A stretch of DNA of 45,981 nucleotides from an uncultured Candidatus Peribacteria bacterium (GTDB lineage Bacteria; Patescibacteriota; Gracilibacteria; Peribacterales; Peribacteraceae): positions 1 to 45,981 of the forward strand of contig CAZEVM010000005.1 in assembly GCA_964515645.1 (NCBI GenBank), written 5' to 3'. The stretch's first letter is position 1. Each line of letters starts with the position of its first letter. The notes under the pieces are model-generated. The model did no database searches. It was not told the origin of the DNA and saw only the letters and a list, made by a program, of their open reading frames with translations. Position numbers and translations under genes: made by a program. This document shows positions 2,419 through 39,745 of this stretch, one piece after another.

Positions 2419-5400
2419 ATGCCCCCACAGGAACAGCCCCAGCAACCGCAGGCCCCCGCCGAGAACCGTGAAACCCCCCAGTGGACGGAATTCCGCCAGG
2501 AGGTCGCGGCCTTTGGCCGCGCGCTCGGACCGCGTCCGCCGTTGCCGGAAAATCCGAGCGATCTCCAGTTGCAGGGGTTGTTGAACGAGTCTCGCAATCG
2601 CGCCACCATCACAAGCTTTAACGAGCTCAACCGTGGCCGCGAGATTCTCTTCCGCTCCACGGCCATCCGCCACGCGGCGGACATGGAAGACCCTCAGAAC
2701 CGCAACCGCTTCAATCGTGAGTCGTACATCGTCTCCGCCCAGGCCGCGACCTACTGCGAGGACCTGTCGAATATCACCGATTTCATTGCACACTCGATGC
2801 GGAACTACGAGCTGTGCCAGGACATCATCGTCACCCTACCAGCCGCGAAGCGCACTCAGCTTGAAACCAAGCGCGCCCAGTCGGTGCTCTTTCTCCGTGC
2901 GCTGCGCGCCGCTACCGAAGAACGCGTGGCCTTTGCCAACGTCCGCAACGCCTACCAAGTATTAGCCGCCGAACGCGCCAAGCCCGAAGGCCAGCGTGAT
3001 AATGCCCGCATCCTCCAGTTCACGACCGTGCGCGACACGGCCATGGACAAGCTGTCGCCGGCCAGCCGCGCGGTCTTCTTGAATGCCGGACCAGACCAGG
3101 CCAACGCCATCCGCACCCAGGCCACCACCCTCGAACGCAAGATCATCGGCATTGCCGCCGGCACGGAGCGTGTACCCGGCGTGGACGCTGGCTGGCTGCC
3201 GACCTATCTCTACCTCGACGTTCTCGAGGCGCGCTACACGCAAATTCAAGACGAACAGAAAGCATTCATCCTTGCCAATCGCCAGCTCGAAGAAGGCGGC
3301 GGCCGCGCGATGGAACTCTTGAACCGCGAACGCGAAGCCGTGATGGGCCAGATGATCGCCTACACGCACGATCTCTCGGGCTATCAGCAGAACATGGCCC
3401 GGCTGAACTCGACGCAGAACCTCTTCACCCGCTGGAACGTGGAAGATGCCCAGCCAAGCCCGGGCCCCACGCCACCCGAGGTGCGCGCCGACATCAACCG
3501 CTCGGTCACCGCACAGCGCGACTTCCACCTGGGCCGCCTCGAAGCTGTGACGAACCAGGCCAACGTGGAATTCCGCGGCGGCGTGTTGAGCCGTGAGCAG
3601 CTCCGCGACGCGCTGGTGAACCAAGTGGTCACCGCGGCCAATATTTCAAACTGGATCTCCCGCATCCTCACGCTCGGCGGCTATGCCGACGTGGGCAACC
3701 GCCTGCAGGGCTTCCTCACTGGCCCCATCTGTGAGGCCCTCCAGTGGCCAAAAAATCCCGACGGCACCTTCAAGACGCGTCTCACGCAGGCTGAAGCCGA
3801 CGCCATCTCCGACCGCCTCGGCCGTTTGAACCAGCTCGTCCAGAACTTCAACCGCAATAACAACGGCGCTCAGATCCGCGACACCATCACCGCCATCAAG
3901 GCCATCGACCCGACGGAAGCGGTCAGCAACGAGCGCGTGGGTCAGGTGCGCGAGCCGCTCCCCGCCGGCCCCATCACAGCCGCGCAGGTGCCAGCCAAAC
4001 TGGCTGAGCTCCAGCAGCAGTACGGCAATCGTCAGGACGCCGTGGCTACACTACAGGCCGCACTCTTGCAGCAGCTGAACGGCTTGTGGGGCACGCTGAA
4101 TCCTGACAATAGATCGGGCACGGGCTTCATTGGTCAGTACGCGACCATGCTCACCGAGATCGAACGCATGATCAACGTGCAGCTCGATGTCGCCGGCGCC
4201 TGCTTCCAGATGAAGGACCGCATGTTCCTTGCGGCCAAGGCCATCCTCATTGCCGTCGGCACGTCGCCGATCTTAACGTGGGGCGCCAGCACAGCTGCCG
4301 GCTTGGCATTCCTCACTCGCTCCGGCCGTCGGGCACTGTGGGCAACAGCCACCGCACCCGTCCGAGGCGGCATCGCCCTCGCACGCCATGAAGTGCGACA
4401 ATTCCGCAGTGCCACAGGCTTCCAGCGGGTCGGCTGGGGCGCAGGTATGGCCGTTGAGGCGTACGCCACCTACGAGGCCTACCAGGACGTCCAGCGAGAG
4501 AATGTGCGCCTGAATGATGTCAAAGCGGAAATCGCGCGACAGCTGGTTCTTGCCGGATTCACCCTTAAACAAGGCACGACGAACGTGTACGAGCACGCCT
4601 GCGGCTCGCGCATTCGCCTGGACGAGTTGAATATGAACCTCGACCAGCAGCGCTACGCCGCCTACACCCGCTTCGGCACGCGCGCCCTCGGCCTTGGCTC
4701 GATGTTGCTCATGGGTCCGCGTATCGCCATGGGCCCGGTCGGTTGGGCACTCATTGGTATTCAAGTCGTCGTTGAAGCCGGTATCTCCGCCTGGGAAAAC
4801 CGCGCTGCCCGCGAGCTTATTGCCAATCCCAACACGCCGCCATGGCTCATCATGGCGCTTGGCACCTCGCAGCTCGTCAACCGCAGCGAGTACGACATGC
4901 TGCTCAATAGCAGCAGCTGGAACACGATCGGCTTCGGCTCTACCGAAGAGGTTAAGAGGACCGTCCGCGAGAAGATGTACTTCACCATCTTCGGCCAAGA
5001 GCTCGGCGCTGCCTCACCAGATCTCCTGCGCGAGATCACCGCTGGCACCCGCAATATTCAGGAAATGGACGCCATCTTCGCTGGCGACTTCAAGACCATG
5101 CTTCTGCCGTACCTGTACGTACGCCTCTTCCAGAAGGCCCGCGCCCGCAACAGCGGCATCGGCTGGGACGCCGTGAAGGACGGCAAGATGGATCGCGGCA
5201 TGGTGGTCATTCCGCCGGACATCACCAACTTGGAGATTCGCGAGGCCATGCGCGAACTCGGCGTACTCTACGTGCAGCACCTGCGCGAGAAGCGCCTCAT
5301 CGATCTACTCGCCCGCCGCCGCGCCCAAGAGGCCGAGGTGGCCGCCGCCCCCGCCGACCAACAGAAACGCGAGCGCCTTGCAGACACCAATCACATGCTC

Positions 5401-7368
5401 GAGCTCATGGCCACTGAAACAGTCTTTGGCCAGCCGCTTTCAACGCTCACCCAGGCCCAAATCGATGGCAATAACGGCAAGACGCGCGCCCAACTCCTCA
5501 TGGAGACGATCTACGGCCAGGTGAATGGCAACCCCGGCGCGCCGAACTTCCGCTTGAATCAGGCGGCCGTGGCCAACATCCAAGGCCTGCCCGCCTCCAT
5601 GGCCAACGGCGTGGACTTCACGAGTGCTGACGCCATCCTCACCACCTCGGTCACGAATCCCGTCGAGATGGCAAACCTGCGCCGCATCGGCCCGCTCACC
5701 ACCGACGAACCTGAAGGCCGCGTGTTCCCCGCTTGGAACGATTGGGCCGGCCATGGCCGACGCCTACTGCAGATGCCGACCGGCATCGACGAAGCGGACG
5801 GCGTGCATGCCGCCCGCACGGCCGCGAACAACGCCGCCCAGGGCGCCGGCTTGCCGAACGTAGCGGAGAACGCCAGTTTCGAAGCCGCACGTGACCGCAT
5901 CACCGAAGCAGGCATGAAGCTTTTCAACAGGAATAACCGGAGCTTCACACGTAATAATGACCTGGCGAACACTCTGTATGGCCGCGAGCAGCACCTTCCG
6001 CTCGTCTTCACCAATCTCAATCCACGACTTCAAGGCAATATCGATACGCAACGTCTGCTGATGGGCAATGCCCGCATGCCGAACATCAACGGAGGCGGAG
6101 CAGCGTTTGCCTTCAATCAGGTCCGCGCCGTCTTCATCGAGAGCGAGACCTTGCCGAGCGGCCACGATATCGTTCACTTCACATTCATCTTCGGCGACGT
6201 GGAAGCCATCGGCCTTCGTAACACGCGCGTCTACGTGGTACAGCAATCAGCCGCAAGCAGCCGCACTCGTGGTCAGAACATTATCGTCGGACGCGCTGTT
6301 GGCCTGACGGAGGCCGGCTTGCGTCAGCAGGCAGGCGGCGACCGCATCTTCAACCAAACGATCACAGGCCTCCAGCAGCAAGCCTTCGAGCGCCAGCATG
6401 CCAATCAGGAAGCAGCCGAGCGTGAGCGTGTACGTCTGGAACAGGAAGCGCGTGAACGTCCGGCACGTGAAGCGCGCGAGCGCGCCATCATCGATGCCCG
6501 CAACGAGCGTATCCGGGTGGCCATGGAACGCGTCCGTGCCAACCCCAACACCTACGTCTCGGTGGAGAACGCCAACGGCAACGGCAGCCGCTTCGTGATG
6601 CGCTACACCGATCAGGGTCGCGACCAGATCGTGTCGATCGCCCCGTACGCCCAAGATGGCGGCGCACGCTTCGAGGCTCTGCCGTCCGGCGTGATGAAGG
6701 ACCCTGAGCTCACCGCTAGCGTGACCATCGACGGCCGCAGCCTGAACATCCCGTGGAACTTCATGAATAACCGCGATGTCAGCTGGGGCGACGCGCGCTT
6801 CTACCTGCGCATCCTCACCACGCCGCACCCCGGCGAAGAGGCCATGCCGTTCGAGCGCATCATGTCGATGATCCCGCACTACGACACGCTCAAGTACGAC
6901 GTGCGCGGTAACCTCCGCAACCTCTACAACGAGGCAAAAGACAAAGAAGGCTTCCTCTACTACCTCATCATGCTGGCCGGTGCCCGCGGCGGCTTCACGC
7001 GTGGCACCGTCATCAACCCGCTGTTCGGCGATAACGACAACCGCATCGTGAGGTTGTTCCGGGACAACATGAACATGTTCAACGCCGAGGGCCGCGGCGC
7101 CAGGGACCGTGACTTACTTTCACAAGGCCTCGGCCTGATGGGCAACGACCAGCCCAACGAGTACGGCATCTGGTGGATTCGTAAGGATCCCCGGGCCACG
7201 CCGATTGGCTACCGCTTCATCTTTGGCCAGGGCTGGCAATGGACTCCGCACGAGGGTGGAGACCGCCATTGGATGAATGTCGACACGGAAACCGTGAGCA
7301 ACGGCCGTTGGCGCGGCCAGTCGCCCACCCAGGCCAACCTGGACTTCATCCGCTCGCTTCCCCGCTAA
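2419..7368 (+). CDS. giant orphan integral-membrane protein (1,649 aa)
   Basis: This is an uninterrupted 4,950-nt ORF with ordinary amino-acid composition, whereas all overlapping antisense ORFs are Arg/Gly/His-rich shadows. A hydrophobic cluster spans about aa 595-800 (nt ~4200-4830; e.g. MFLAAKAILIAVGTSPILTWGASTAAGLAFL and ALGLGSMLLMGPRIAMGPVGWALIGIQVVVEAGISAW). An E/R-rich coiled coil lies at nt ~6370-6535 and the C-terminus is Trp-rich. I recognise no catalytic motif or known domain. Confidence 0.85.
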   Translation: MPPQEQPQQPQAPAENRETPQWTEFRQEVAAFGRALGPRPPLPENPSDLQLQGLLNESRNRATITSFNELNRGREILFRSTAIRHAADMEDPQNRNRFNRESYIVSAQAATYCEDLSNITDFIAHSMRNYELCQDIIVTLPAAKRTQLETKRAQSVLFLRALRAATEERVAFANVRNAYQVLAAERAKPEGQRDNARILQFTTVRDTAMDKLSPASRAVFLNAGPDQANAIRTQATTLERKIIGIAAGTERVPGVDAGWLPTYLYLDVLEARYTQIQDEQKAFILANRQLEEGGGRAMELLNREREAVMGQMIAYTHDLSGYQQNMARLNSTQNLFTRWNVEDAQPSPGPTPPEVRADINRSVTAQRDFHLGRLEAVTNQANVEFRGGVLSREQLRDALVNQVVTAANISNWISRILTLGGYADVGNRLQGFLTGPICEALQWPKNPDGTFKTRLTQAEADAISDRLGRLNQLVQNFNRNNNGAQIRDTITAIKAIDPTEAVSNERVGQVREPLPAGPITAAQVPAKLAELQQQYGNRQDAVATLQAALLQQLNGLWGTLNPDNRSGTGFIGQYATMLTEIERMINVQLDVAGACFQMKDRMFLAAKAILIAVGTSPILTWGASTAAGLAFLTRSGRRALWATATAPVRGGIALARHEVRQFRSATGFQRVGWGAGMAVEAYATYEAYQDVQRENVRLNDVKAEIARQLVLAGFTLKQGTTNVYEHACGSRIRLDELNMNLDQQRYAAYTRFGTRALGLGSMLLMGPRIAMGPVGWALIGIQVVVEAGISAWENRAARELIANPNTPPWLIMALGTSQLVNRSEYDMLLNSSSWNTIGFGSTEEVKRTVREKMYFTIFGQELGAASPDLLREITAGTRNIQEMDAIFAGDFKTMLLPYLYVRLFQKARARNSGIGWDAVKDGKMDRGMVVIPPDITNLEIREAMRELGVLYVQHLREKRLIDLLARRRAQEAEVAAAPADQQKRERLADTNHMLELMATETVFGQPLSTLTQAQIDGNNGKTRAQLLMETIYGQVNGNPGAPNFRLNQAAVANIQGLPASMANGVDFTSADAILTTSVTNPVEMANLRRIGPLTTDEPEGRVFPAWNDWAGHGRRLLQMPTGIDEADGVHAARTAANNAAQGAGLPNVAENASFEAARDRITEAGMKLFNRNNRSFTRNNDLANTLYGREQHLPLVFTNLNPRLQGNIDTQRLLMGNARMPNINGGGAAFAFNQVRAVFIESETLPSGHDIVHFTFIFGDVEAIGLRNTRVYVVQQSAASSRTRGQNIIVGRAVGLTEAGLRQQAGGDRIFNQTITGLQQQAFERQHANQEAAERERVRLEQEARERPAREARERAIIDARNERIRVAMERVRANPNTYVSVENANGNGSRFVMRYTDQGRDQIVSIAPYAQDGGARFEALPSGVMKDPELTASVTIDGRSLNIPWNFMNNRDVSWGDARFYLRILTTPHPGEEAMPFERIMSMIPHYDTLKYDVRGNLRNLYNEAKDKEGFLYYLIMLAGARGGFTRGTVINPLFGDNDNRIVRLFRDNMNMFNAEGRGARDRDLLSQGLGLMGNDQPNEYGIWWIRKDPRATPIGYRFIFGQGWQWTPHEGGDRHWMNVDTETVSNGRWRGQSPTQANLDFIRSLPR

Positions 7369-7397: not shown

Positions 7398-7488
7398 TGG
7401 CGGTGGGAGAGGGATTCGAACCCTCGAGACCCTTTAGGGGCCTACACGATTTCGAGTCGTGCGCCTTCGACCACTCGGCCATCCCACC
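7398..7488 (-). tRNA. tRNA-Ser (anticodon CGA), class II with long variable arm, CCA encoded
   Basis: The reverse complement reads GGTGGGA-TG-GCCGAGTGGTCGAAGGC-G-CACGA-CTCGAAA-TCGTG-TAGGCCCCTAAAGGGTCTC-GAGGG-TTCGAAT-CCCTC-TCCCACC-G-CCA. The acceptor, anticodon and T stems all pair, and the anticodon loop CT-CGA-AA gives CGA. Confidence 0.92.
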
Positions 7489-7646
7489 GCCGCGTATTGT
7501 AGCGATGGCGCGCTGAAGGGAAACCCCCGTCAATTGCTTCTCCCTCCTCTGAGGGTCCGCGAAGTCGAGAATTGGCCCTTGCGGCCAAAGGACGGGCCTG
7601 GAACAATCAGGCCCGCTTTACTCTTATTTCTTTCTTCCCCCTTCTT

Positions 7647-8006
7647 ATGAGTTACGTTGTTGCTTCCAAGGTGAAGGAGACCGTCAACGCCAAGGATATG
7701 ATGGCTGCCGGTGACCTCGCTGAAGCTCTCAGCAAGCACGTCGAGATGTGGCTCGGCCTCGGTGTGAAGGCTGCCCAGGCTAACGACCGCAAGACGGTCC
7801 GCGGCGCTGACATCCTCGCCTTCAACCCGGGCAAGGCTCAGCTCGTCGTCGCCTCGAAGGTGAAGGAGTTCATCAACGGTAAGGACATGATGGCCTCTGG
7901 CGACCTGCCGGAGTACGTCAGCGGCCTCGCCGAGTGGCTCCTCGCTAAGGCTATGGAGCGCGCCAAGGCCAACGACCGCAAGACGGTCCGCGAGAACGAC
8001 CTCTGA
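7647..8006 (+). CDS. tandem histone-fold (DUF1931-like, pseudodimeric) small DNA-binding protein, 119 aa
   Basis: The internal ATG at 7647 (MSYVVASKV...) was preferred over the track start at 7572. Two tandem repeats are present: VVASKVKETVNAKDMMAAGDLAEALSKHVEMWLGLGVKAAQANDRKTVRGADILAF and VVASKVKEFINGKDMMASGDLPEYVSGLAEWLLAKAMERAKANDRKTVRENDL. Each shows a helix-loop-long helix-loop pattern with the RKT(V/I)xxxD(I/L) L2 signature seen in archaeal HMf histones (GRKTIKAEDI). The gene is followed by a strong terminator. Confidence 0.7.
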   Translation: MSYVVASKVKETVNAKDMMAAGDLAEALSKHVEMWLGLGVKAAQANDRKTVRGADILAFNPGKAQLVVASKVKEFINGKDMMASGDLPEYVSGLAEWLLAKAMERAKANDRKTVRENDL

Positions 8007-8028
8007 TCCGTTCCATTGCGAACGATCC

Positions 8029-8056
8029 AAAAAGGCCCCGAAAGGGGTCTTTTTGT
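8029..8056 (+). terminator. rho-independent terminator of the histone-fold gene
   Basis: AAAAAGGCCCC-GAAA-GGGGTCTTTTTGTT, a GC stem with a GNRA-type loop and a T-tract. Confidence 0.8.
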
Positions 8057-8086
8057 TGGTCGCCTGGGCGCCTACACTGGCCCCCA

Positions 8087-11943: not shown

Positions 11944-12522
11944 ATGCCAACCAAGCCCAAGAAGACTGCCCGCCACCGCCCCTCTGCCCTGCTGAATAAG
12001 GAACATCTGGCAGCCGCCGTGGAGCGGAACATTAAAACGCTGTCCGAGATCCGCAATCAGATGGAACGTAGCCGCACCATCCAAGATCGTATCGCGGATA
12101 TGATCACAAACTTCTCGGGCTCGACGCTCTTCCTCTACCTCCACATCCTGTGGTTTGGTACGTGGATCATCATCAACACCGGTTCTCTTGAGAAACTTGG
12201 GCTGCCCGCCTTCGATCCGTTCCCCTACGGACTACTGACGATGATTGTCTCGCTCGAGGCGATCTTCCTCTCCACCTTTGTTCTCATCAGTCAGCAGCGC
12301 CTCTCGGAGGTGCAGGATGACCGCGCCGATTTAGATCTGCAGATCGACCTACTCGCCGAATACGAGATCACGAAGATCCTGACGATCGTCGATGCCATGG
12401 CTCATAAGATGGGCCTGCACGAAGGCAAGGACCCTGAATTGGCCGAGTTGAAGACCGAGATCAAGCCCGAACAGATCCTGCGCGAGATAGAAGCTCGCAA
12501 AAAGCGCTTAGGCCTCCAATAA
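11944..12522 (+). CDS. DUF1003-like membrane protein
   Basis: The start was set to ATG 11944 (MPTKPKK...), which is preceded by TACAGT-N7. Supporting pattern: ADMITNFSGSTLFLYLHILWFGTWIIIN ... FDPFPYGLLTMIVSLEAIFLSTFVLISQQR, followed by a coiled C-terminus. Confidence 0.7.
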   Translation: MPTKPKKTARHRPSALLNKEHLAAAVERNIKTLSEIRNQMERSRTIQDRIADMITNFSGSTLFLYLHILWFGTWIIINTGSLEKLGLPAFDPFPYGLLTMIVSLEAIFLSTFVLISQQRLSEVQDDRADLDLQIDLLAEYEITKILTIVDAMAHKMGLHEGKDPELAELKTEIKPEQILREIEARKKRLGLQ

Positions 12523-12529
12523 AGCGCGC

Positions 12530-12535
12530 TATACT
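12530..12535 (+). promoter_or_regulatory. -10 box TATACT placed 6 nt before ATG 12542 (leaderless arrangement)
   Basis: TATACT-gggtcc-ATG read directly. Confidence 0.5.
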
Positions 12536-12541
12536 GGGTCC

Positions 12542-13135
12542 ATGAAGATCCTCGCCCTCGAGACGAACGAGGACCGGCTCAAGGAAGACCTGATCACTGC
12601 CAACGAGCAGCTGCTCCTGGCGATACATTTCTCGGGCTTCCTCTTTGGCGCCCGTTTGATCAGGAGCATCTTTTGGACGTTGGTTCTCACGGGCGTCACG
12701 ATCGGGGAAATTCTCGCCGGAGTCGAACCCTTCTGGGCCATTCTCCTGTCGATCATCATCTGGATTCCGTGGGTTGGCTGGCGGATGCTCACCGCTTGGA
12801 TCGATTGGCGCTACGACGTCTTGCTGGTGACCACCGACAAGATCATCGTCGTCGACCAATCGTCGATCGTCCGCTCGTCCATCCAGCAGATGAACATCGA
12901 GAACATCGCCAGCGTCACCGCCCACACCCAGTTTGGTGATCTCTTCCCCTTTGGCCGCCTCTGCTTCGACCTCAAGGAAGGCACCGGCCAGCGCATGATC
13001 TTGCCCTACGTGCCCCGCGCCCGGGCCGTGGCCTCCACCATCGCCAACATCGTCATGGACTTCCAGGGCCGCCGCGCCGTGAAGGCGCCCAACGTCCACG
13101 TGCACGACTCCCTCGAGCCACAGATCAACATTTGA
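12542..13135 (+). CDS. membrane protein with a membrane-flanked PH (bPH_2/YdbT-like) domain
   Basis: Two N-terminal hydrophobic helices are followed by WRYDVLLVTTDKIIVVDQSSIVRSSIQQMNIENIASV, a pattern typical of the bacterial PH family. Confidence 0.55.
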   Translation: MKILALETNEDRLKEDLITANEQLLLAIHFSGFLFGARLIRSIFWTLVLTGVTIGEILAGVEPFWAILLSIIIWIPWVGWRMLTAWIDWRYDVLLVTTDKIIVVDQSSIVRSSIQQMNIENIASVTAHTQFGDLFPFGRLCFDLKEGTGQRMILPYVPRARAVASTIANIVMDFQGRRAVKAPNVHVHDSLEPQINI

Positions 13136-13176: not shown

Positions 13177-14607
13177 ATGCCTCCCCGCCTTGCTGATCCC
13201 GCCCAGGATTTCCCCCAGTGGTACCTCGACGTCATTGCCCACGCCGACTTGGCGGAGCATGCCGACGTGAAGGGTTGCATCATCTTCAAGCCCTACGGTT
13301 ACGCTATCTGGGAAGCCATCCAGGCCGACCTCGACCGGCGCATCAAGGCGCTGGAGGTGCAAAACGCCTACTTCCCGCTCTTCATCCCGGAATCGGTGAT
13401 GAACAAGGAAAAGGACCACATCGAGGGATTCGCACCCGAGTGCGCGGTGGTCACCCACGGCGGCGGCAAGGAACTGACCGAGAAGCTCTACGTCCGACCC
13501 ACCAGCGAGACGATCATTTACTCCACGTTCGCCAAGTGGATTCAGAGCCACCGTGACCTGCCCATGCGCGTGAACCAGTGGTGCAACGTCGTGCGCTGGG
13601 AGATGCGTACGCGCCCGTTCCTGCGCACGCTCGAGTTCCTCTGGCAGGAGGGCCACACCGCCCACGCCACCAAGGCCGAGGCCGACGAGATGGTGGAGAA
13701 CGCCCTCAAGATGTACGCCGACTTCGACCGCGAGATGCTGGCCCTGCCGGTGCTCCGCGGCCGCAAGCCCGAGCACGAGAAGTTCGCCGGCGCGCTCTAC
13801 ACGCTGACCACCGAGGCCCTCGCCCGCGACGGCAAGGCCATCCAGGCCGGCACCTCGCATAACCTGGGCAACGAGTTCTCGGCCGCCTACGGCATCAGCT
13901 ACCTCGACGAGGCCGGCCAGCAGCAGTCCCCCTGGACCACCAGCTGGGGTCTCTCCACACGCATCATCGGCACCATGATCGTGGTGCACGGCGACGCCAA
14001 GGGCCTGCGCCTACCGCCCCGCGTGGCGCCGGTGCAGGTGGTGATCGTGCCCATCTACAAGGCCGACGAGGAGCGCGCAGCCGTGCTGGCCAGCTGTGAC
14101 GCCATCAAGAAGGCGCTCGGTTCGGTGCGCACCAAGATCGACGACCGCGACAACAAGTCCCCCGGCTTCAAGTTTAACGAGTGGGAAATCAAGGGCGTGC
14201 CCGTCCGCATCGAGGTGGGCCCGCGCGACCTGCAGGAGAAGAAGGTCACCGTCGTGGACCGCAGCACCGGCGAGAAGAGTCAAATGGACATCGCCGCCTG
14301 CACTGAGGCCGCCTTCAAGGCGCACCTCGATGACGTGCACGACCGCATGCTCAAGGAAGCGGAGAGTTTCCTGAAGGAGCGTACCTTCACCGTCGAGACG
14401 TTCGCCGAGTTGGAGGAGAAGATGGAGGCCGGCGGCTTTGCCTGGGCCCCGTGGGACGGCACGCTTGAGACGGCCAACAAGATCAAGGATAAGACGAAGG
14501 CCACCATCCGCCTGTTGCCGGAAGGCGAGCAGAAGATGGACGGCAAAAAGGACGTCCTCAGCGGCGCTCCGGCCGTGACGATGGCGCTCTTCGCGAAGGC
14601 CTACTGA
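13177..14607 (+). CDS. proS: prolyl-tRNA synthetase, archaeal/eukaryote-like type
   Basis: FPQWYLDVIAHADLAEHADVKGCIIFKPYGYAIWE, class II motifs (TSETIIY, FLWQEGHTAH, GTSHNLG) and a length of 476 aa without the bacterial editing insertion. Confidence 0.9.
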   Translation: MPPRLADPAQDFPQWYLDVIAHADLAEHADVKGCIIFKPYGYAIWEAIQADLDRRIKALEVQNAYFPLFIPESVMNKEKDHIEGFAPECAVVTHGGGKELTEKLYVRPTSETIIYSTFAKWIQSHRDLPMRVNQWCNVVRWEMRTRPFLRTLEFLWQEGHTAHATKAEADEMVENALKMYADFDREMLALPVLRGRKPEHEKFAGALYTLTTEALARDGKAIQAGTSHNLGNEFSAAYGISYLDEAGQQQSPWTTSWGLSTRIIGTMIVVHGDAKGLRLPPRVAPVQVVIVPIYKADEERAAVLASCDAIKKALGSVRTKIDDRDNKSPGFKFNEWEIKGVPVRIEVGPRDLQEKKVTVVDRSTGEKSQMDIAACTEAAFKAHLDDVHDRMLKEAESFLKERTFTVETFAELEEKMEAGGFAWAPWDGTLETANKIKDKTKATIRLLPEGEQKMDGKKDVLSGAPAVTMALFAKAY

Positions 14608-14613: not shown

Positions 14614-15033
14614 TCAGCGGTTGATGAAGATGATGCCCAGGAACGTCACCAGGGCGCCGAAGGCGATGCCGCCGAGCACTTCGGTGAACGAGTGCCCCAA
14701 GCGCTCCTTGAGGTGCTGCCAGTGCTGCAGGCGATTCAAGATCTGCGCCTGTTGGCCCAGCTGGCGGCGCACGGCCACGGCGTCGTACCAGACGATGCAG
14801 GCCAGGATGAAGGCAATCGCGAACTCGGTGGACTCGATCCCCTGGCGCTTCCACACCACGAGCATGAGCGACGTGACGAAGGCCGAGTGCGAGCTGGGGA
14901 ACCCACCAGGATGGAAGAGCTTCTCCTCCCAGTTACCGGCGCGCAGGTAATGCACGAAGAACTTCGTGAACTCCGTCAGCACGAGCACGACGACGGGGAT
15001 CAGGAAGATGTACGTCGAGAGGAGGCGTTCCAT
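14614..15033 (-). CDS. divergent PAP2 / DUF212 family membrane protein
   Basis: It has the GGFPSSHSAFVTSL motif and about three hydrophobic helices. The start was set to ATG 15033, which is preceded by TGcTATTCT-N6. Confidence 0.75.
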   Translation of the reverse strand: MERLLSTYIFLIPVVVLVLTEFTKFFVHYLRAGNWEEKLFHPGGFPSSHSAFVTSLMLVVWKRQGIESTEFAIAFILACIVWYDAVAVRRQLGQQAQILNRLQHWQHLKERLGHSFTEVLGGIAFGALVTFLGIIFINR

Positions 15034-15069
15034 GGCGGAAGAATAGCAGTAAACCGGCACCAGCGCCTC

Positions 15070-16152
15070 TTACGCCTGAGACTTGAAGGTCAGGCGGACG
15101 TTCTCGACCGCACCGGCGCCGCCGGCCTGGCGACGGGTCGGCACATCCACAACCACGTCGGCCGTGCCGACGGGCGAGTTCTGCACGCGGGTCAGGGCGG
15201 CCACCAGGTCGGCGCGAGCGATGTAGCGCACCTCCGCACCATTGTTCACGCTCAGCGTGGCCTCGGCGCCACTGAGGCGCAGCGTGGTGGGTTCGTTGCG
15301 GAAGCGCGTGCTCAAGTTGCCGAGCGTACCATCGGCCGTGAGGCTGAAGGTGCGCGTGCCAACACGCAGGTTGGTGGTATTCGTCGTGCCTTCGGTGCCG
15401 TTCACAAAGCCGATGTCCAAACCCGGTGCCAGGGTGATGGTGCGGCCCTGAAGTTGGGAGGCGAGGAGGTTCAGGTTCTCGATCTGAGCAACCGGAATAG
15501 CGCCGGACACACTCTGCAACTGCGTGAGACGGCTCGCCTCATCATTGCCGCTGTCTGTAGGAGCACCCTCGCGAGCACGCGCCCACGGCGTCAGGCCGGC
15601 AAAGCCCGAAAGAATAACGCCACCGCCGAGGATCGCGGCGATCGCTCGCTTGGGAGCCGACGAAATGCCGCGCCACAAACGACGCAAACCAGCGACCAAC
15701 GCTGCACCGCCAGCCGCGGCCAGGGCAAACACTCCGACGCGCTTGATCGTCGAATTACCCTCTGCATCAAGGTTTCGCGCCAGAAACGATGACGTACTTT
15801 CAAAGGCAGTACTGACGCCGCGACGAGCGCCGCCGGCCAATACCGTAGCGCCACTCGCGATGGTATCCACCGTACTCATCGCCGCGTCCTGAGTGGCCTC
15901 GCCCCAGCCGCGCTCAAGAGCGCGATGCATGGCATCAAGGCTGTTACGGGTATTCACCTCGACATTCTGGCGAGCAGAAAGCCAACGTTGGATGAGTCCC
16001 CGTAGTTCGTTGCGCTGCTGGCGAGAAATGCGATTGTCCCGAACAGCATTCGCCACCGACTGTTGCAGGCGGTTCAGGTCTGCGATATTCACCTCCTGAT
16101 TCTGTCGCAGGCTCTCGATGACGGGGTGATCGGCGAAGTTGAAGTTAGCCAT
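15070..16152 (-). CDS. hypothetical membrane protein, third gene of the orphan trio (360 aa from ATG 16152; the track offers GTG 16167)
   Basis: It has a Q/R-rich helical N-domain and two hydrophobic helices (VGVFALAAAGGAALVAGL and AIAAILGGGVILSGFAGL), followed by a Thr/Val/Gly-rich beta-type C-domain. The ATG lies 4 nt after the stop of the preceding gene. I recognise no family. Confidence 0.75.
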   Translation of the reverse strand: MANFNFADHPVIESLRQNQEVNIADLNRLQQSVANAVRDNRISRQQRNELRGLIQRWLSARQNVEVNTRNSLDAMHRALERGWGEATQDAAMSTVDTIASGATVLAGGARRGVSTAFESTSSFLARNLDAEGNSTIKRVGVFALAAAGGAALVAGLRRLWRGISSAPKRAIAAILGGGVILSGFAGLTPWARAREGAPTDSGNDEASRLTQLQSVSGAIPVAQIENLNLLASQLQGRTITLAPGLDIGFVNGTEGTTNTTNLRVGTRTFSLTADGTLGNLSTRFRNEPTTLRLSGAEATLSVNNGAEVRYIARADLVAALTRVQNSPVGTADVVVDVPTRRQAGGAGAVENVRLTFKSQA

Positions 16153-16156
16153 AAGA

Positions 16157-17317
16157 TTAGGAGACACGGAGAGTGCGCGTCAGCGACGTCGGCGGGGCGC
16201 CGACGGCGAGCGTGAGGGTAGCGGCGGGAGAAGCTGTGGCACCGCGCTGAATGCGGATGCCGGTCGGTGTGCGGGAGATCGTCACAGCGCCCACAGTGAC
16301 AGCTCGCGCTGTAGTCACCGCCTGGCCGTTCAAGCTCACCGGAGCGCTGGGAGGCGTGAGGATGAAGTCCTGACTGAAGTTGCGCGTCACGTTGAGGCCG
16401 GCGGCCGGCACGTTAATGGACGCGACCGCGGCGCGCGGGCCGACGCCAGCCGTCTCTTGGGCCAAGCTCACGATCTGCTGGAGCGTGACAGTGCCGTTGG
16501 TGGCACGCAGGCGCGTCTGGGCGCGCTGGGCGAGCTGCTGCAGGTAGAGGTTGGCGTCGGTACCGGCGCTCACGGCGTTCTGCTGAAGCGTCTTGAGCGT
16601 AGTAAGCAGCGCCTCGTCACCACGGACGCGGACGATGCGCAAATTCACCACCGAGAACTGATTCTGGAGCGGCCCAAGAATATCGCTGGCGCCAGCCATG
16701 GCACTCACGCTCTGTGTCAGCTGGGTCTCCACCACAGAAGAGACCGCTCCGCCTCCCATAAAGTTGCGGAAGAGGCCAAGCACGGCCGTAGTGCCGACGG
16801 CACTCATGATCGGCGCGGCGGCCGGATTTTGGGCAAAGCGCTCGCGAATCCAGTTGCCAGCACGGCCGGCGTAGAACGACGCGCGAGCGATGAGGTTATC
16901 GATGCGCTGCGACGTAGAAGTGGGATTCGGGAACGGCGGCACGAACGTCGGAGCGGGCGTCGGACCCTGCGGCGTCACCGGCACGGCCTCAATGGGAGCC
17001 GGCTCAGGTTCAGGCTCAGGGGTCGGCGTCGGTTCTACCGGCGCGGCCGGCTCTTCGCTGAGGAGACTCTCCGCAAATTGGCTATGCTGATCGACAACGG
17101 TATCGAGTTCGGTCTGGATGGCTGGACGATCGGCGGCGTCGAGTTGCTGTACCTGGGTGCGCAACGTCGTCAGACGCGAGCGAACATCACGAGCCACGCG
17201 GACGCGCTCGGCGCGGTCGGCCGAGGCGCGAGCCTGCTGGATGTCGTACCGCACGGCTTCCAGGCTGCAGCGGACGTCGACGGGATTAGGCCGATCGGGA
17301 GTGGTTTCACTGGGCAT
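16157..17317 (-). CDS. hypothetical protein with coiled-coil N-domain, Pro/Glu/Thr linker, hydrophobic segment and beta-rich C-domain (386 aa)
   Basis: Segments in order: RAERVRVARDVRSRLTTLRTQVQQLD, the linker EPTPTPEPEPEPAPIEAVPVTP, the hydrophobic stretch IMSAVGTTAVLGLFRNFMGGGAVSSVV, and a T/V/A-rich C-terminus. There is a 3-nt gap to the upstream gene. The 631-aa ORF on the opposite strand is an Arg/Gly/His-rich shadow. Confidence 0.75.
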   Translation of the reverse strand: MPSETTPDRPNPVDVRCSLEAVRYDIQQARASADRAERVRVARDVRSRLTTLRTQVQQLDAADRPAIQTELDTVVDQHSQFAESLLSEEPAAPVEPTPTPEPEPEPAPIEAVPVTPQGPTPAPTFVPPFPNPTSTSQRIDNLIARASFYAGRAGNWIRERFAQNPAAAPIMSAVGTTAVLGLFRNFMGGGAVSSVVETQLTQSVSAMAGASDILGPLQNQFSVVNLRIVRVRGDEALLTTLKTLQQNAVSAGTDANLYLQQLAQRAQTRLRATNGTVTLQQIVSLAQETAGVGPRAAVASINVPAAGLNVTRNFSQDFILTPPSAPVSLNGQAVTTARAVTVGAVTISRTPTGIRIQRGATASPAATLTLAVGAPPTSLTRTLRVS

Positions 17318-17320
17318 GAC

Positions 17321-18214
17321 TTAGTTGGAAGCGCGGACGCGGAGGATCTTGGTCTCGCCGTTGAACTTCAATTTGCGCTCGCCCGCGGTGGCGTTGGCCG
17401 TCACCTCGACGGTGATCTTCTCCTCGCCCGCGGCACGCGTGAGCTTGAGGCCGTTGATGATCACCGAACCAGCCGTGCTGCCAGCCAGCTTGCCGGCCTG
17501 GCCTTCCACCGAGACGTCGGCCGAGAAGGGCACGTTTACGGTGCGCTTGTCATTACGGTTAAGTTCTTCGTTCTCGCCGAGCGCACGCACCTCCGGCACG
17601 GCCGGGGGAGGTGTGTTGGGCGTTGTTTCCGTGGCAGGGGCCTGCGGAGCGACCGTGAGGGCGATGGTCTTCGCCTTATTCACCACTTCGGCCAGCGTGA
17701 TGTTCGTGTTCGTACCGATGGCGGCGCCGAGCTGCGCGAAGAAGCGACTCATCACCGGACCGTTGCCGGCCGTCTGGCGCACGCGGTCAATCTCACCCGC
17801 CAGCTGCGTGAGCAGGGCGCGATCCTCGCTACGCGTGGCGTCGACCCAACCCGTCAGGTTGCCGGGCAGCATGCGATTATTCGCGTGGTTCGGGACCATG
17901 CGGTTCAGCTGCGTGGCGAGCGCCTCGGGACTCTTGGAGAGCATGCCCATCAGAGCGCGAATCGGCTCCGGGAACATCGGCATCTGGCCGAGACTCTCCA
18001 GCTGCAGCGAACCATAACGACCCACTGCTTTTGACACTTCGCCGAGCAGACGGGTAAAGGCCTCCGTCGCACGGTTCACCTGCTCACCAAAGTTGTTCAG
18101 CTGCAGGTTCGTACCGCGGAGCACATCAGGGCGAGTGCGCGGCGTGACACTCAGACTATCCGGCCGACTCTGCGGCAAACCATCCGGACCAACATTGGGG
18201 GAGACAACGTTCAT
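17321..18214 (-). CDS. hypothetical protein, first gene of the orphan trio (297 aa from ATG 18214)
   Basis: ATG 18214 (MNVVSPNVGPDG...) lies downstream of a TGgTATAAT promoter that falls inside the longer TTG-initiated track ORF. It has a helical N-part, a TTPNTPPPAVP linker and a beta-rich C-terminus. I recognise no family. Confidence 0.75.
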   Translation of the reverse strand: MNVVSPNVGPDGLPQSRPDSLSVTPRTRPDVLRGTNLQLNNFGEQVNRATEAFTRLLGEVSKAVGRYGSLQLESLGQMPMFPEPIRALMGMLSKSPEALATQLNRMVPNHANNRMLPGNLTGWVDATRSEDRALLTQLAGEIDRVRQTAGNGPVMSRFFAQLGAAIGTNTNITLAEVVNKAKTIALTVAPQAPATETTPNTPPPAVPEVRALGENEELNRNDKRTVNVPFSADVSVEGQAGKLAGSTAGSVIINGLKLTRAAGEEKITVEVTANATAGERKLKFNGETKILRVRASN

Positions 18215-24724: not shown

Positions 24725-24756
24725 GGGAGAAAAGGGGCTATACTGCGGCCCCGCGT

Positions 24757-33910: not shown

Positions 33911-34658
33911 TAAGTGGCACAACATCCGGGTGAAGAAGACCGCCGAGGACGCGAAGCGCGGCAAGGTCTACACGCGTCACGCCAAGCTCATCGAAATGGC
34001 GGCGCGCAGCGGCGGCGACCCGGATATGAACCCGGGCCTTCGTACGGCCATCGACAGCGCGAAGGCGGATAACGTTCCCAATGCCAACATTGACCGCGCC
34101 ATCCAGAAGGGCACAGGCGCGCTCAAGGGCGCAGCCGCCATCGAGGAGGTGACCTACGCGGCCTACGGTCCGGGCGGCGTGGCCTGCCTAGTGGAGTGCC
34201 TGACCGACAACAAGAACCGCACGCTCAGTAACCTTAAGCTCGCCATCAGCAAGGGCGGCGGCACCTGGGCCGAGAGCAACGCCGTGGCCTGGATGTTCGA
34301 ACGAAAGGGCTTCGTGACCGCCGAGAAAGCCGGTCTCTCCCCCGCAGCTCTGGAAGAGATGGAACTGGAACTCATCGACTTCGGCGCCGAGGACCTCGAC
34401 CTGCAGGGCGAGGTGCTCACCGTCACCACCGGCCTCTCCGACTGGCCGGCCATCCGCGACTTCCTGACCAAGAACGGCTTCACCGTCTCGGGCTCGGGCC
34501 TGCGCCTCGTGCCGAACCAGCGCCAGGCCGTAGCAGATGCCGAGGGCGCCAAGAAGCTCGCCGCCTTCATCGAGGCCGTGGAGGCCGACGACGACGTCTC
34601 GGAGGTGTTCCACAACGCCGAGTTCTCGGAGGAGGCAGTGAGAGGATTGGAGGCATAA
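33897..34658 (+). CDS. yebC: YebC/PmpR family transcriptional/translation-associated regulator
   Basis: [37 protein letters not shown]...; 253 aa of typical YebC sequence throughout. Confidence 0.92.
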   Translation: [253 protein letters not shown]

Positions 34659-34685
34659 AAAAACCGCACCCCCATGGGGGTGCGG
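34657..34685. terminator. bidirectional hairpin, with a T7 run on the minus strand
   Basis: AAAAAAA-CCGCACCCCC-AT-GGGGGTGCGG between yebC and the convergent low-GC gene. Confidence 0.75.
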
Positions 34686-34704
34686 CCTTCGGAACAGAAG
34701 AGGT

Positions 34705-35217
34705 TTATGAGGAGAGCATGACATATCTGAGCCAATGCCTGACGTAGAGATCAACATCTATTTCCTGTTGAAGCAAATCCCCTTTATGAGATGAGAAAGG
34801 CTCCGGCTCACGACCGATTTCCTTGGTGAGCTTCTTCATTAAGCGATACACATATGTCACGCCAGCCCGACAAAGACACCGGCGCAGTGGACTTGGCTTT
34901 TCCCAGAGCATGTCTGTCAGCGCAGAACCTGCCTCATCCGCTAATATGTCGCGATCTTCCTTGTTCGAGATGTTCCGTAGAAAATCAATGAACCCACTGA
35001 ATGTAGGAGTCGGTCCGACGACACGTATTGCCATGCGCAACACACGGATGATTTTTTTAAGATCCCTCTCGACTCCTCGCTTGATTTGAGGCGGAGGAGT
35101 AGACGACTGCTTCATAGAGACATAAGACTGCAGCACTTCTTCCAAATTAAGAGGGGGAACAGTGCTACGAATCTTCGGCCACAGAGACTCCATATATCGG
35201 AATTCGTGATTCGCCAT
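34705..35217 (-). CDS. hypothetical protein (170 aa) in the low-GC islet
   Basis: The ORF has an AGGAAG ribosome-binding site 7 nt before the ATG, an AT-rich promoter region upstream and a terminator downstream. It is markedly AT-richer than its neighbours. I recognise no family. Confidence 0.65.
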   Translation of the reverse strand: MANHEFRYMESLWPKIRSTVPPLNLEEVLQSYVSMKQSSTPPPQIKRGVERDLKKIIRVLRMAIRVVGPTPTFSGFIDFLRNISNKEDRDILADEAGSALTDMLWEKPSPLRRCLCRAGVTYVYRLMKKLTKEIGREPEPFSSHKGDLLQQEIDVDLYVRHWLRYVMLSS

Positions 35218-35261
35218 TTCGGCACTTCCTACTGTTTACAGTTCTGTGAAAAAACACTGAA

Positions 35262-35294
35262 TAAAATATTTATCACATAATTATTAATTGTCAA
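35262..35294 (-). promoter_or_regulatory. AT-rich promoter region with a perfect TTGACA (-35) for the 34705-35217 gene
   Basis: On the minus strand the sequence reads TTGACAATTAATAATTATGTGATAAATATTTT. The -35 lies at 35294-35289, and the exact -10 choice is ambiguous (TAAATA or AAATAT). Confidence 0.4.
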
Positions 35295-35309
35295 TAACAC
35301 CTAAATCAA

Positions 35310-35349
35310 TCACTCCCCCTCCGGCAGGTTGATATCCGGCACGCTCGAG
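35310..35349 (-). repeat. direct-repeat copy A: orphan duplicate of the last 12 codons plus stop of the PBP gene
   Basis: 37 of 40 positions are identical to 36002-36041. In the PBP frame it still reads SSVPDINLPEGE-stop (gat/gac, aac/aat and tga/taa are the only changes). Confidence 0.85.
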
Positions 35350-35365
35350 TTTTCCGGAAGTACAA

Positions 35366-35390
35366 TAAAAAGCCACGCTGGGGCGTGGCT
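35366..35390 (-). terminator. rho-independent terminator of the 35473-35910 gene
   Basis: The minus strand reads AGCCACGC-CCCA-GCGTGGCT followed by TTTTTAT. Confidence 0.75.
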
Positions 35391-35472
35391 GATGGTCGGA
35401 GTGGCGAGCAGCCACTCAGGCTGACTTTTTTAATGAGAAGAGCAAACAATGTCATACGATGATGCGGCCCCA

Positions 35473-35910
35473 CTACATTTGCTGTAGCCAATGTCGCACA
35501 AATCTAGCTAAAGCCAATGATGCAGGCTCATGTACCTCCCGCCATTGCACTACAGCCTGCAGGATGCGTGTGCAGGAGATCAGGCTGCACGCATGAAAGA
35601 TTGTATTGGCCACCATGTGTGAGAACGCAAGCTCTAAATACACCCTTTCCGTACTGTCGGCAGGCAGGGCAGCAATTTCTGTAAAAACACGGCGATACGG
35701 AACAAGGTTGCCGAGACGTTGGGCCAGAGCGGTCTCAAGACTGAGATGAGCCAATGTGCCCGGGTAGATCATTTCTGGCCTTCCTTCCCCGGCCGGAACT
35801 ACCAACTGCAGTTGGCACGCTTCAGCAAAACTAAATACCCAGCGTTCTTCATACAGAGCTGTTTTAAATTCCTCCAAAAAACCCAACGCCTGTTCCTGCA
35901 AAATATTCAT
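35473..35910 (-). CDS. hypothetical protein (145 aa) in the low-GC cassette
   Basis: It has a consensus promoter, a GGGAGA ribosome-binding site 6 nt before the ATG, and its own terminator. The protein looks helical. I recognise no family. Confidence 0.65.
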   Translation of the reverse strand: MNILQEQALGFLEEFKTALYEERWVFSFAEACQLQLVVPAGEGRPEMIYPGTLAHLSLETALAQRLGNLVPYRRVFTEIAALPADSTERVYLELAFSHMVANTIFHACSLISCTRILQAVVQWREVHEPASLALARFVRHWLQQM

Positions 35911-35951
35911 GAAACTTCTCCCTGTAATATAAAGAGCGGGCGAATAATCGT

Positions 35952-35980
35952 ATTATAAAATATTATTATTATTTTATCAA
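35952..35980 (-). promoter_or_regulatory. near-consensus sigma-70 promoter TTGATA-N17-TATAAT
   Basis: On the minus strand, TTGATA lies at 35980-35975, followed by an exact 17-nt A/T spacer and TATAAT at 35957-35952. Confidence 0.7.
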
Positions 35981-36001
35981 ATAATCGCAAAATGCTCGCT
36001 T

Positions 36002-39085: not shown

Positions 39086-39115
39086 GGGCAATGGAGTGTA
39101 GCACCGATCCTCGGC

Positions 39116-39745
39116 TCAGTCCGGCTTTATCCGCACGGATTCTCCGCCTAATTTTTCGAGCCGATCGACGGCTTCCAAGCATTCGGCCGCGCGTGGGTTT
39201 TGAGGATCAAGCTGCTGCACACGGGTAAAAAGTGCTTTGGACTTGGCGAAATTACGAAGCTCTAGATAGAGCACACCCAAGTCGCAGAGGACGAAGGTAT
39301 TGTCGGGATCGAGGTTGAGTGCACGCTCCATGGTGACAACGCCCTGTGGCTTCTGGCCGCCGCGGAAGAGCGCCCAGCCCAGGCGACGCAGGATATCGGG
39401 ATCGTTGCCGCGCAGCTTGTTGGCGCGCTGTAACAGATCGATCGCCTCGGGCCAGATCTCTTTCTCCACCCGGATCTGCCCCAATGTGGAGAGTCCGCTC
39501 GCACTCGTCGGATCCAACTCCACCGCCTGGGCGGCGGCTACTTCGGCGCGGTCATACCGCTCTAATTCCAACTCGTGCTCCGCCACCTGCTCCAGCGCAG
39601 CCACGTGGGCCGGGTCCTCGATGAGGATCTGCTCCAACAGGAGAAGGGCATCGTCGAAACGCCCCTCTTCCGCCGCATCGGCGGCGGCCTGGATACGCTC
39701 CTCGATCGAAGCGTCCGCTGGCGGCTGAGGAGTTCCGTCGGTCAT
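39116..39745 (-). CDS. tetratricopeptide-repeat protein
   Basis: It contains several 34-aa A/L/Y-patterned repeats (e.g. ALLLLEQILIEDPAHVAALEQVAEHELE and WPEAIDLLQRANKLRGNDPDILRRLGWALF). Confidence 0.8.
   Translation of the reverse strand: MTDGTPQPPADASIEERIQAAADAAEEGRFDDALLLLEQILIEDPAHVAALEQVAEHELELERYDRAEVAAAQAVELDPTSASGLSTLGQIRVEKEIWPEAIDLLQRANKLRGNDPDILRRLGWALFRGGQKPQGVVTMERALNLDPDNTFVLCDLGVLYLELRNFAKSKALFTRVQQLDPQNPRAAECLEAVDRLEKLGGESVRIKPD

Follow-up and report, generated by a model that had tools for sequence, protein, structure and literature searches.

Positions 7647 to 8006 (forward strand) of a 45,981-nucleotide stretch of DNA from an uncultured Candidatus Peribacteria bacterium (assembly GCA_964515645.1, contig CAZEVM010000005.1; the whole stretch is referred to here as the window) carry a gene for a 119-amino-acid (aa) fused double histone (MSYVVASKVKETVNAKDMMAAGDLAEALSKHVEMWLGLGVKAAQANDRKTVRGADILAFNPGKAQLVVASKVKEFINGKDMMASGDLPEYVSGLAEWLLAKAMERAKANDRKTVRENDL). 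With a probability of roughly 55%, the product of this gene is a single-chain pseudodimer of two α3-truncated histone folds that arose by in-place fusion within Peribacteria and that is likely a nucleoid protein. Its function, judged by analogy with characterized relatives, is most likely that of a non-specific DNA-binding chromatin protein, possibly acting as a dimer of doublets. What appears to be new is a lineage-specific single-chain doublet in a class of the Candidate Phyla Radiation (CPR), seemingly derived from a face-to-face (FtF) histone, with a conserved asymmetric divergence of its halves at the presumed tetramer interface. To our knowledge, HBb and HLp are the only experimentally characterized bacterial histones, and none is from the CPR.

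The coding sequence starts with an ATG and ends with a TGA stop (8004 to 8006). A longer reading from a TTG at 7572 (144 aa) was rejected, and 7647 was taken as the true start, because all homologs begin with MSY and a conserved promoter (described below) falls inside the TTG extension. Residues 4 to 56 and 67 to 119 of the product align without gaps (BLASTP; 31 of 53 identical, 58%; E = 9e-19), which corresponds to a repeat unit of 53 aa with a period of 63 aa. At the DNA level, the halves are 68% identical (60% at third codon positions), and the same codon is used at 21 of the 31 identical residues. This divergence indicates an old duplication rather than an assembly artefact. An earlier reading of the DNA made without database searches (referred to here as the sequence-only reading) had proposed such an internal duplication, and the two motifs on which it relied (VVASKVKE..N.KDMMA.GDL and A(Q/K)ANDRKTVR..D(I/L)) are each present in both halves. 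The dN/dS (nonsynonymous/synonymous rate) ratio of the gene was 0.18, and the medians for 12 orthologs were 0.11 (N-half), 0.23 (C-half), and 0.54 (linker). Both halves are under purifying selection.

Regarding the fold, the Pfam profile PF00808 (CBFD_NFYB_HMF) matched the protein in two stretches at 27.5 bits (gathering score, 21.4), and AlphaFold2 (single chain, 43-sequence alignment) produced a model with a predicted local distance difference test score (pLDDT) of 96.8 and a predicted template modeling score of 0.88. The modeled topology is α1-L1-α2-L2 plus a one-turn α3, twice. The N-terminal fold (residues 1 to 57; 7647 to 7817, +) comprises α1 (6 to 14), an L1 bridge (19 to 20), α2 (24 to 45), an L2 bridge (50 to 51), and an α3 stub (53 to 56), while the C-terminal fold (residues 66 to 119; 7842 to 8003, +) comprises α1 (69 to 78), α2 (87 to 108), short bridges at 82 to 83 and 113 to 114, and an α3 stub (116 to 118); this division follows the model, the profiles of the two halves, and their dN/dS ratios. 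The α2 helices have 22 residues in each half, the α3 stubs have 4 and 3, respectively, and the chain terminates one residue past the second stub. The linker from the α3 stub of the first fold to α1 of the second (residues 58 to 65, AFNPGKAQ; 7818 to 7841, +) is modeled as a high-pLDDT coil and is variable among orthologs.

All Foldseek matches of the model were to histones, and the top whole-chain ones were single-chain histone pseudodimers: HMk 1f1e of Methanopyrus kandleri (template modeling score [TM], 0.68), doublets of Melbournevirus, chimeras of H2B and H2A made by engineering, and 1wwi. Taken alone, each half can be superposed on HLp of Leptospira perolatii (9qt0/9qt1; 0.9 Å; TM, 0.94; 39 to 40% identity) and on HBb/Bd0055 of Bdellovibrio bacteriovorus (9f0e; 1.1 Å; 38 to 44% identity). 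The only genuine sequence matches in the PDB were to HLp 9QT0 (E = 1e-6, second half), HBb 8FVX and 8CMP (E = 1e-4, first half), and HTkC 9F2C of Thermococcus kodakarensis. The RxTxxxxD motif is found in both halves (R48-K-T50...D55 and R111-K-T113...D118) and does not vary across 43 sequences. These results bear out the claim of the sequence-only reading that two histone folds lie in tandem, each with helix 3 truncated. In an α3-truncated histone, α3 has 3 to 4 residues, α2 is 4 to 5 residues shorter than in nucleosomal histones, and RxTxxxxD is present (Schwab et al., 2024). By this definition, the protein is an α3-truncated histone in the form of a covalent doublet.

Two other family assignments were rejected. 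For a nucleosomal HMfB-type histone, a full α3 of ~10 residues is expected and 3 to 4 were found; the archaeal-histone model NF043032 (NCBIfam) scored 28.1 bits, below its cutoff of 50, and HMfA/HMfB were reached only at E values of 0.008 to 0.5 in the C-half and singlet profile searches of the PDB. The DUF1931/Aq_328 family, to which the sequence-only reading had likened the protein, fared no better. PF09123 scored 16.4 bits (cutoff, 21.8) over 26 of its 138 profile positions, the DUF1931 structures 1r4v and 1wwi gave no match at E ≤ 1 in the protein search and three profile searches of the PDB, and the window protein retains DNA-binding residues, whereas DUF1931 pseudodimers lack the canonical ones and form a separate sequence cluster. 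That likening nevertheless has a basis because 9QT0 (HLp, an FtF histone) was deposited as a "DUF1931 domain-containing protein."

In HLp-DNA crystals, the contacts are made by A13, S14, and K15 (the paired helix ends), K17, K21, T27 and G29 (L1), and T56 and T57 (L2), and the pair R55-D62 clamps L2. The window protein has equivalents of A13, S14, K15, K17, G29, T57, and the clamp in both halves. These are A6-S7-K8 and K10 or A69-S70-K71 and K73 in α1, G22 or G85 in L1, K49-T50 or K112-T113 in L2, and the clamps R48-D55 and R111-D118. In an alignment of 43 sequences, no variation was seen at S7, K10, R48, K49, T50, D55, S70, K73, R111, K112, or T113. The equivalents of K21 and T27 are Asn (N14/N77) and Ala (A20/A83), respectively. 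HLp forms a tetramer wrapping ~60 bp, HBb is strictly dimeric and bends DNA, and the characterized relatives bind DNA by backbone contacts without sequence specificity. By homology to HLp and HBb, the doublet would be a sequence-nonspecific nucleoid protein that grips the DNA backbone through its paired α1 N-termini (both A-S-K triplets with K10 and K73). The L1-L2 β-bridges (G22 with K112-T113, and G85 with K49-T50) would also contact DNA, each L2 being held in place by its Arg-Asp clamp.

A word-indexed search covering 5.8 billion proteins retrieved 81 relatives, including 47 full-length doublets (45 to 99% identical), almost all of exactly 119 aa. The named doublet orthologs belong to Candidatus Peregrinibacteria and Altimarinota. 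Among one-genome-per-species contigs, the 13 closest loci (64 to 90% identity) are all from Candidatus Peribacteria/Peregrinibacteria metagenome-assembled genomes (MAGs), so that the guess of a CPR-like genome in the sequence-only reading proved right despite a window G+C content of 62%. Many other Peribacteria encode 56-aa singlet histones (e.g., MSYVVASKVKELLKAADMMTAGDLADAASKYLEDALKKAAKRAQENGRKTVRACDL of Candidatus Peribacter riflensis, catalogued in Supplementary Table 1 of Hocher et al. [2023]); the diagnostic strings of the doublet were not found in the accessible part of that table. A HMMER search over 1.84 billion representatives yielded 111 relatives at E ≤ 1e-3. Approximately 40 of these are of doublet length, from Poseidoniales archaea, Actinomycetota, and HBb-like lineages, some with a signal peptide or a ZZ finger. 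Fused α3-truncated doublets are rare but recurrent. One 4889-aa match (P0095; 11 matched stretches) was set aside; it is a Halomonas protein with Ig-like repeats, which probably produced a spurious match. A phage origin was rejected, as no relative was found in a viral-contig scan and the local G+C content equals that of the flanks.

We aligned 70 single-fold units (57 columns; 200 neighbor-joining bootstraps). The mean identity of the window halves was 57 to 65% to Peribacteria singlets, 58 to 59% to each other, 51% to two DPANN-type archaeal singlets, 38% to Poseidoniales doublet halves, and 33% to the Bacteriovoracaceae doublet. Bootstrap support was 79% for monophyly of the N-halves of the 12 core doublets and 88% for a grouping of the Bacteriovoracaceae halves with HBb. 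Of the 16 Peribacteria loci tested, 15 have a tRNA-Ser(CGA) gene at 0.15 to 2.2 kb upstream of the histone gene, whether they carry a doublet or a singlet, and with the tRNA in either orientation. The 79 fetched loci come from 79 different assemblies, and no second histone copy was present among them for any doublet genome. Most simply, the singlet was duplicated in tandem and fused in place in one sublineage of Peribacteria, and the doublet thereby replaced it; an origin within the lineage is supported because the halves are nearest to Peribacteria singlets and because the tRNA neighbor and the promoter/leader layout are shared. A common origin with the Bacteriovorax-type doublet was rejected, given the 33% identity and the grouping of that doublet with HBb. 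On these comparisons, the Peribacteria fusion is independent of the Bacteriovorax sp. ICPB 3264 doublet.

Several other histone lineages were observed among the relatives. A second, divergent doublet lineage is present in Peribacteria MAGs (L015, 5998 to 6399; L017, 6001 to 6381). Its identity to the window protein is ~41%, its L1 contains Cys (GCNCAGDA), its C terminus is slightly extended (DFVCM/DFMCA), and it is nearer to Poseidoniales/Guaymas archaeal doublets than to the main Peribacteria clade. Two 56-aa archaeal singlets (MSYSVASKVKELIKAREMNC.GD...ERAKANDRKTVRG.DL), one in an Aenigmatarchaeota MAG (L019, 1771 to 1941) and one in an unclassified archaeal MAG (L026, 6001 to 6171), also start with MSY and are 51 to 56% identical to Peribacteria histones, a likeness that may point to an exchange of histone genes by DPANN archaea and CPR bacteria. 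Poseidoniales/MGII loci (L021, L028, L040, L043, L044, and others) encode α3-type doublets of ~119 to 124 aa (MSMVYNSKMKEAIKAGGCNTAGD...) that have the FtF R/N signature in both halves; this order has been reported to have "acidic quadruplet" histones. Distant α3 doublets follow an apparent signal peptide or hydrophobic N terminus, as judged by eye, in P0100, P0141, P0143, P0166, and P0186, and an HBb-like doublet follows a ZZ-type zinc finger in P0135. Histone-fold doublets, if exported, would be odd.

FtF histones are distinguished from HBb-type "bacterial dimer" histones by a conserved Arg and Asn ending α2 (R48/N52 of the profile; R49/N53 in HLp). The Arg pairs with the C-terminal residue/carboxylate of the opposing dimer and the Asn with that dimer's L2 Arg. 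The triad R(i)/N(i+4)/R(i+6), equivalent to HLp R49/N53/R55, is present in all Peribacteria singlets and all C-halves, in which the C-terminal Leu is invariant as well; the window C-half carries the complete signature (R105/N109/R111) and a free C-terminal L119. The N-halves keep N46 and R48. Their FtF Arg, however, is lost in 12 of 12 core orthologs (Ala in 11, including A42 of the window protein, and Ser in 1), and their former C terminus is a variable residue that now runs into the linker. In the unit alignment, HBb carries Ser where FtF histones have Arg and Asp where they have Asn. Membership in the HBb-type bacterial dimers was rejected on the retention of N46, N109, and R105 and on the clustering of HBb with the Bacteriovoracaceae doublet.

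We searched the PDB with three profiles built from Peribacteria singlets, C-halves, and N-halves. The singlet profile scored HLp at 56.6, HBb at 47.8, and HTkC at 43.3 bits, and the C-half profile scored HLp at 49.2 and HBb at 34.1 bits. Raw identities of the halves in the unit alignment were 34 to 42% to both FtF and bacterial-dimer references and are non-discriminating. The signature and the profiles suggest that the ancestral protein formed FtF-type tetramers. Face-to-face pairing may persist in the doublet, with the C-C′ interface intact and the N-N′ interface reduced. More speculatively, two doublets would join face-to-face as in the HLp/HTkC tetramer and wrap roughly 50 to 60 bp, with the C-halves making an intact interface (R105 to the L119′ carboxylate and N109 to R111′) and the N-halves a reduced one (N46 to R48′ only); in the N-half, fusion removes the free C terminus, and the partner Arg became Ala. 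Natural chains with four folds, which could have stood in for a dimer of doublets, were sought and none was found, the long matches being ZZ-finger or signal-peptide proteins with a doublet.

A further reading, which we hold only tentatively and consider rather improbable, is that, in one Peribacteria sublineage, the fused doublet took over from the singlet as the only histone, and perhaps as the main chromatin protein of a reduced CPR genome, and that its formerly identical halves specialized after fusion. The C-half would have kept the FtF interface, while the surface of the N-half would have been rebuilt (invariant KAAQAND; dN/dS, 0.11), which could give a dimer of doublets that is polar, either C2-symmetric or open, and that wraps DNA in a geometry different from that of the HLp torus. 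If true, this specialization would be a bacterial parallel to the passage from a symmetric homodimer to obligate asymmetric pairs (H3-H4 and H2A-H2B) in eukaryotic histones.

Several observations weigh against the proposed FtF-derived nucleoid protein and its in-place origin. The N-half profile scored HBb (38.8 bits), a strict dimer, nearly equally with HLp (38.2 bits); the C-halves were monophyletic in only 30% of bootstraps on the 57 columns; and the net charge is +2 per pseudodimer (pI 8.9), about half that of the HLp dimer by count. The N-half Arg is retained in other doublet lineages (Poseidoniales, L017, L018, P0043, and P0045), and its loss is therefore not a necessary outcome of fusion. 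Some of these points suit a lone pseudodimer that bends or coats DNA like an HBb dimer or HU without any FtF assembly. Such a bender is a plausible though less likely alternative. HBb itself is strictly dimeric and bends DNA, its score with the N-half profile is at least equal to that of HLp, only one face-to-face Arg of the two is left, the RKT motif is typical of bacterial dimers and nucleosomal histones (HLp has RTT), and the published Bacteriovorax doublet has been assumed to be a dimer equivalent. However, R105, N109, and the C-terminal Leu, which are published FtF-distinguishing residues, are invariant in C-halves and ancestral singlets, and the C-half and singlet profiles prefer HLp by the scores given above.

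Another alternative is a scaffold with a histone fold but no DNA binding, which would have a protein-protein or other role as in DUF1931/Aq_328. It would fit the low net charge, the weak partial PF09123 match (26 residues), the Foldseek match to 1wwi (TM, 0.61), and the caution that not all histone-fold proteins are genome organizers (Schwab et al., 2024). Such a scaffold is nonetheless unlikely, as PF09123 stays below its cutoff, no DUF1931 chain was matched at E ≤ 1 in three profile searches, and helix 3 is truncated, unlike in the DUF1931 structures. Still less probable is a dedicated regulator in place of a bulk chromatin protein, sequence-specific or autoregulatory, acting for example at the strongly conserved palindrome GTCAATTGC, which in ~27 Peribacteria loci sits at a fixed distance ahead of the histone gene and is otherwise almost absent from these loci: all characterized relatives bind via the backbone without sequence specificity, and the motif is found equally at singlet loci, with nothing tying it to the histone protein. 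The chance that the gene is not real (i.e., a chance open reading frame [ORF] in G+C-rich DNA or an assembly duplication) is negligible. High-G+C DNA gives many spurious ORFs, and a 185-aa antisense ORF overlaps the histone locus, but this explanation is already refuted by 47 full-length orthologs extending down to 45% identity, the dN/dS ratio, substantial synonymous divergence between the halves, the conserved promoter and terminator, and the confident structure.

Among known systems, HLp (9QT0-2) and HTkC (9F2C) share the same mini fold, with a short α2 and a one-turn α3. HLp is the best PDB sequence match of the window protein and of the C-half and singlet profiles, most DNA contacts and the Arg-Asp clamp are common to both proteins, and the tetramer signature of HLp/HTkC (R/N/R with a C-terminal hydrophobic residue) recurs in the C-half and the singlets. 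HLp and HTkC, however, are singlets of ~60 aa that form D2 homotetramers, whereas the window doublet is fused and would have C2 symmetry at most. It also differs from HLp in having RKT rather than RTT in L2, no N-terminal tail, and an N-half that lacks both the interface Arg and a free C terminus. HBb (8FVX, 8CMP, and 9F0E) has the same fold, and the RKTV motif of L2 and the α1 lysines are common to HBb and the window protein; HBb is strictly dimeric with Ser/Asp at the FtF positions, whereas the C-half and the singlet relatives have the FtF residues.

Regarding other doublets, those of Bacteriovorax sp. ICPB 3264 (Genome Res 2025, PMC11789641) and Bacteriovoracaceae MAGs (L077) are likewise bacterial fused α3-truncated doublets, but they are HBb-like (RKTVM, no R/N signature) and from a different phylum, and the Bacteriovorax doublet was assumed to act as a dimer equivalent (PMC11789641). 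DUF1931 pseudodimers (Aq_328, 1R4V; Thermus, 1WWI) are also bacterial single-chain double histone folds, although longer (148 residues in 1wwi versus 119). HMk 1F1E, Haloferax HstA, and the Marseilleviridae H4-H3/H2B-H2A doublets are intramolecular pseudodimers too, 1f1e being the top whole-chain match, but these archaeal and viral doublets are nucleosomal-type, with a full α3 and four-helix-bundle tetramerization, and are only 14 to 18% identical to the window protein. The Peribacter riflensis/Peregrinibacteria singlets share with the doublet the MSYVVASK start, the tRNA-Ser(CGA), and the promoter, leader, and terminator layout. These are single folds that must homodimerize, all of which have the FtF Arg and the C-terminal Leu; they have been catalogued and neither discussed nor characterized.

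The α3-truncated histones, with FtF and bacterial-dimer subfamilies, have been described (Schwab et al., 2024), and singlet and doublet size classes are known among bacterial histones; a 2026 review gives bacterial double histone folds as the DUF1931 type only. We found no literature linking histones with Peregrinibacteria or CPR nucleoid biology, and the Peribacteria complete-genome paper makes no mention of histones or nucleoid proteins. The sequence-only reading had suggested that such a protein would be an unusual chromatin component. A fused doublet in a CPR genome stands, but it is less unprecedented than supposed, given the Peribacter singlets (Hocher et al., 2023) and the Bacteriovorax doublet (PMC11789641) already published; with the fold family and the Peregrinibacteria singlet entries published as well, current views are not overturned. 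The locus offers a natural before-and-after pair in one lineage, a 56-aa FtF-type singlet and a doublet that occupy one and the same locus and share their regulatory signals, in which the doublet halves diverged asymmetrically exactly at the tetramer interface. The pair makes it testable how covalent fusion breaks the symmetry of histone assembly and whether DNA wrapping or bending changes, and CPR bacteria join the organisms whose chromatin may be histone-based.

The histone gene has its own putative transcription unit on the forward strand. A putative σ70-type promoter at 7579 to 7607 consists of TTGCGG (7579 to 7584), a 17-nucleotide (nt) spacer, and TGg-AACAAT (7599 to 7607). A consensus promoter scanner found no promoter in this region, and the assignment rests on conservation: in 29 aligned Peribacteria histone upstream regions, most have cTTGC(a/g)-N17/18-TAGAAT. 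The 5′ leader (cttTACTCTTATTTCTTTCTTCCCCCTTCTT; 7615 to 7646, with a presumed 5′ end) has CCCCC at 7637 to 7641, in the Shine-Dalgarno (SD) position. Over its last 25 nt, purines make up a fraction of 0.04, lower than in any of the 36 other window genes compared (0.24 to 0.68), and a CU-rich leader of ~25 to 30 nt with a CCCC block was found in 29 of 29 aligned doublet and singlet loci. Downstream, at 8029 to 8057, lies an intrinsic terminator (AAAAA-GGCCCC-GAAA-GGGGTC-TTTTTGTT) identified by RNAfold and conservation; the segment from 8004 to 8070 folds at -30.1 kcal/mol with this hairpin formed, a pattern scanner missed the terminator, and orthologs have an equivalent GC hairpin and T-run 25 to 45 nt past the stop codon. 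The monocistronic unit with a distinctive C-run leader and a strong terminator in the sequence-only reading was thus supported by the purine fraction, the conserved hairpin and T-run, and the unrelated neighbors. Given this strong stand-alone transcription unit, abundance of the product is plausible.

The motif GTCAATTGC (palindrome core, CAATTG) is located at 7529 to 7537 (+), ~115 nt before the ATG; in the loci for which the ATG position was checked, the distance is ~105 to 115 nt. It is conserved in at least 70% of the 29 aligned loci, doublet and singlet, whichever way the tRNA-Ser points, and at the same relative position in the ~27 Peribacteria loci mentioned above (L001, L002, L003, L009 to L014, L020, L033, and others). 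The exact 9-mer is on the + strand in 28 of 32 exact-match loci and occurs as a single copy per locus, with one in the window. It looks like a candidate histone-promoter-specific cis element. The scanner also flagged a terminator-like inverted repeat (CGGGCCTG-GAACAAT-CAGGCCCG; 7593 to 7615, +), which is present in the window and L001 and degenerate in L002 and L012. A terminator was rejected here on account of the overlap with the inferred -10 box and the lack of conservation in L002 and L012; the hairpin is probably incidental, or it could be a clade-specific operator.

The tRNA-Ser(CGA) gene (7398 to 7488, - strand; ARAGORN and Rfam) is a syntenic marker and not a functional part of the histone gene. 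Rfam matched only this tRNA in the leader region or the whole window. The histone neighbors are a release factor, two unknown ORFs, a 1649-aa protein, UDP-glucose dehydrogenase, an epimerase, and prolyl-tRNA synthetase (ProRS); an operon or functional linkage was rejected, as these are unrelated housekeeping genes. The wider window encodes TrmD, iPGM, UppS, a sigma factor, EF-P, GatB, ThyX, YebC, and PBP1, and it contains no SMC gene, unlike Leptospira. A tblastn search for HU/IHF (queries, Escherichia coli HupA and IhfA and Bacillus subtilis HBsu) gave no match in the window or the 79 loci, which are a small genome fraction and not informative in this respect, and no per-genome HU table was found in the accessible part of the supplements of Hocher et al. 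(2023).

Several minor observations concern the rest of the window. The 1649-aa ORF directly upstream of the tRNA/histone locus (2419 to 7368, +) and the ORFs at 1301 to 1717 and 1714 to 2382 have no Pfam match at E ≤ 1e-3. The G+C content falls to 0.49 at 34501 to 36000 versus ~0.62 elsewhere, and several putative ORFs without a Pfam match (including 12461 to 13105 and 14692 to 18034) have a third-position G+C content of 0.50 to 0.66 versus ~0.8; these stretches could be foreign DNA, non-coding DNA, or mis-called ORFs. An SD-like motif precedes only 3 of the 37 putative window genes, and several genes have a -10-like box (TATACT, TACACT, or TAGAAT) ending 7 to 15 nt before the start codon (1271 to 1300, 8057 to 8086, 24727 to 24756, 39092 to 39121 on the - strand, and 40120 to 40149). 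This arrangement suggests leaderless or very short leaders in several window genes, and translation initiation in the Peribacteria lineage may be unusual. Finally, the ProRS gene (13177 to 14607, +) encodes a ProRS-C_1 C-terminal domain, which we take to mark the archaeal/eukaryote-like type of this enzyme.

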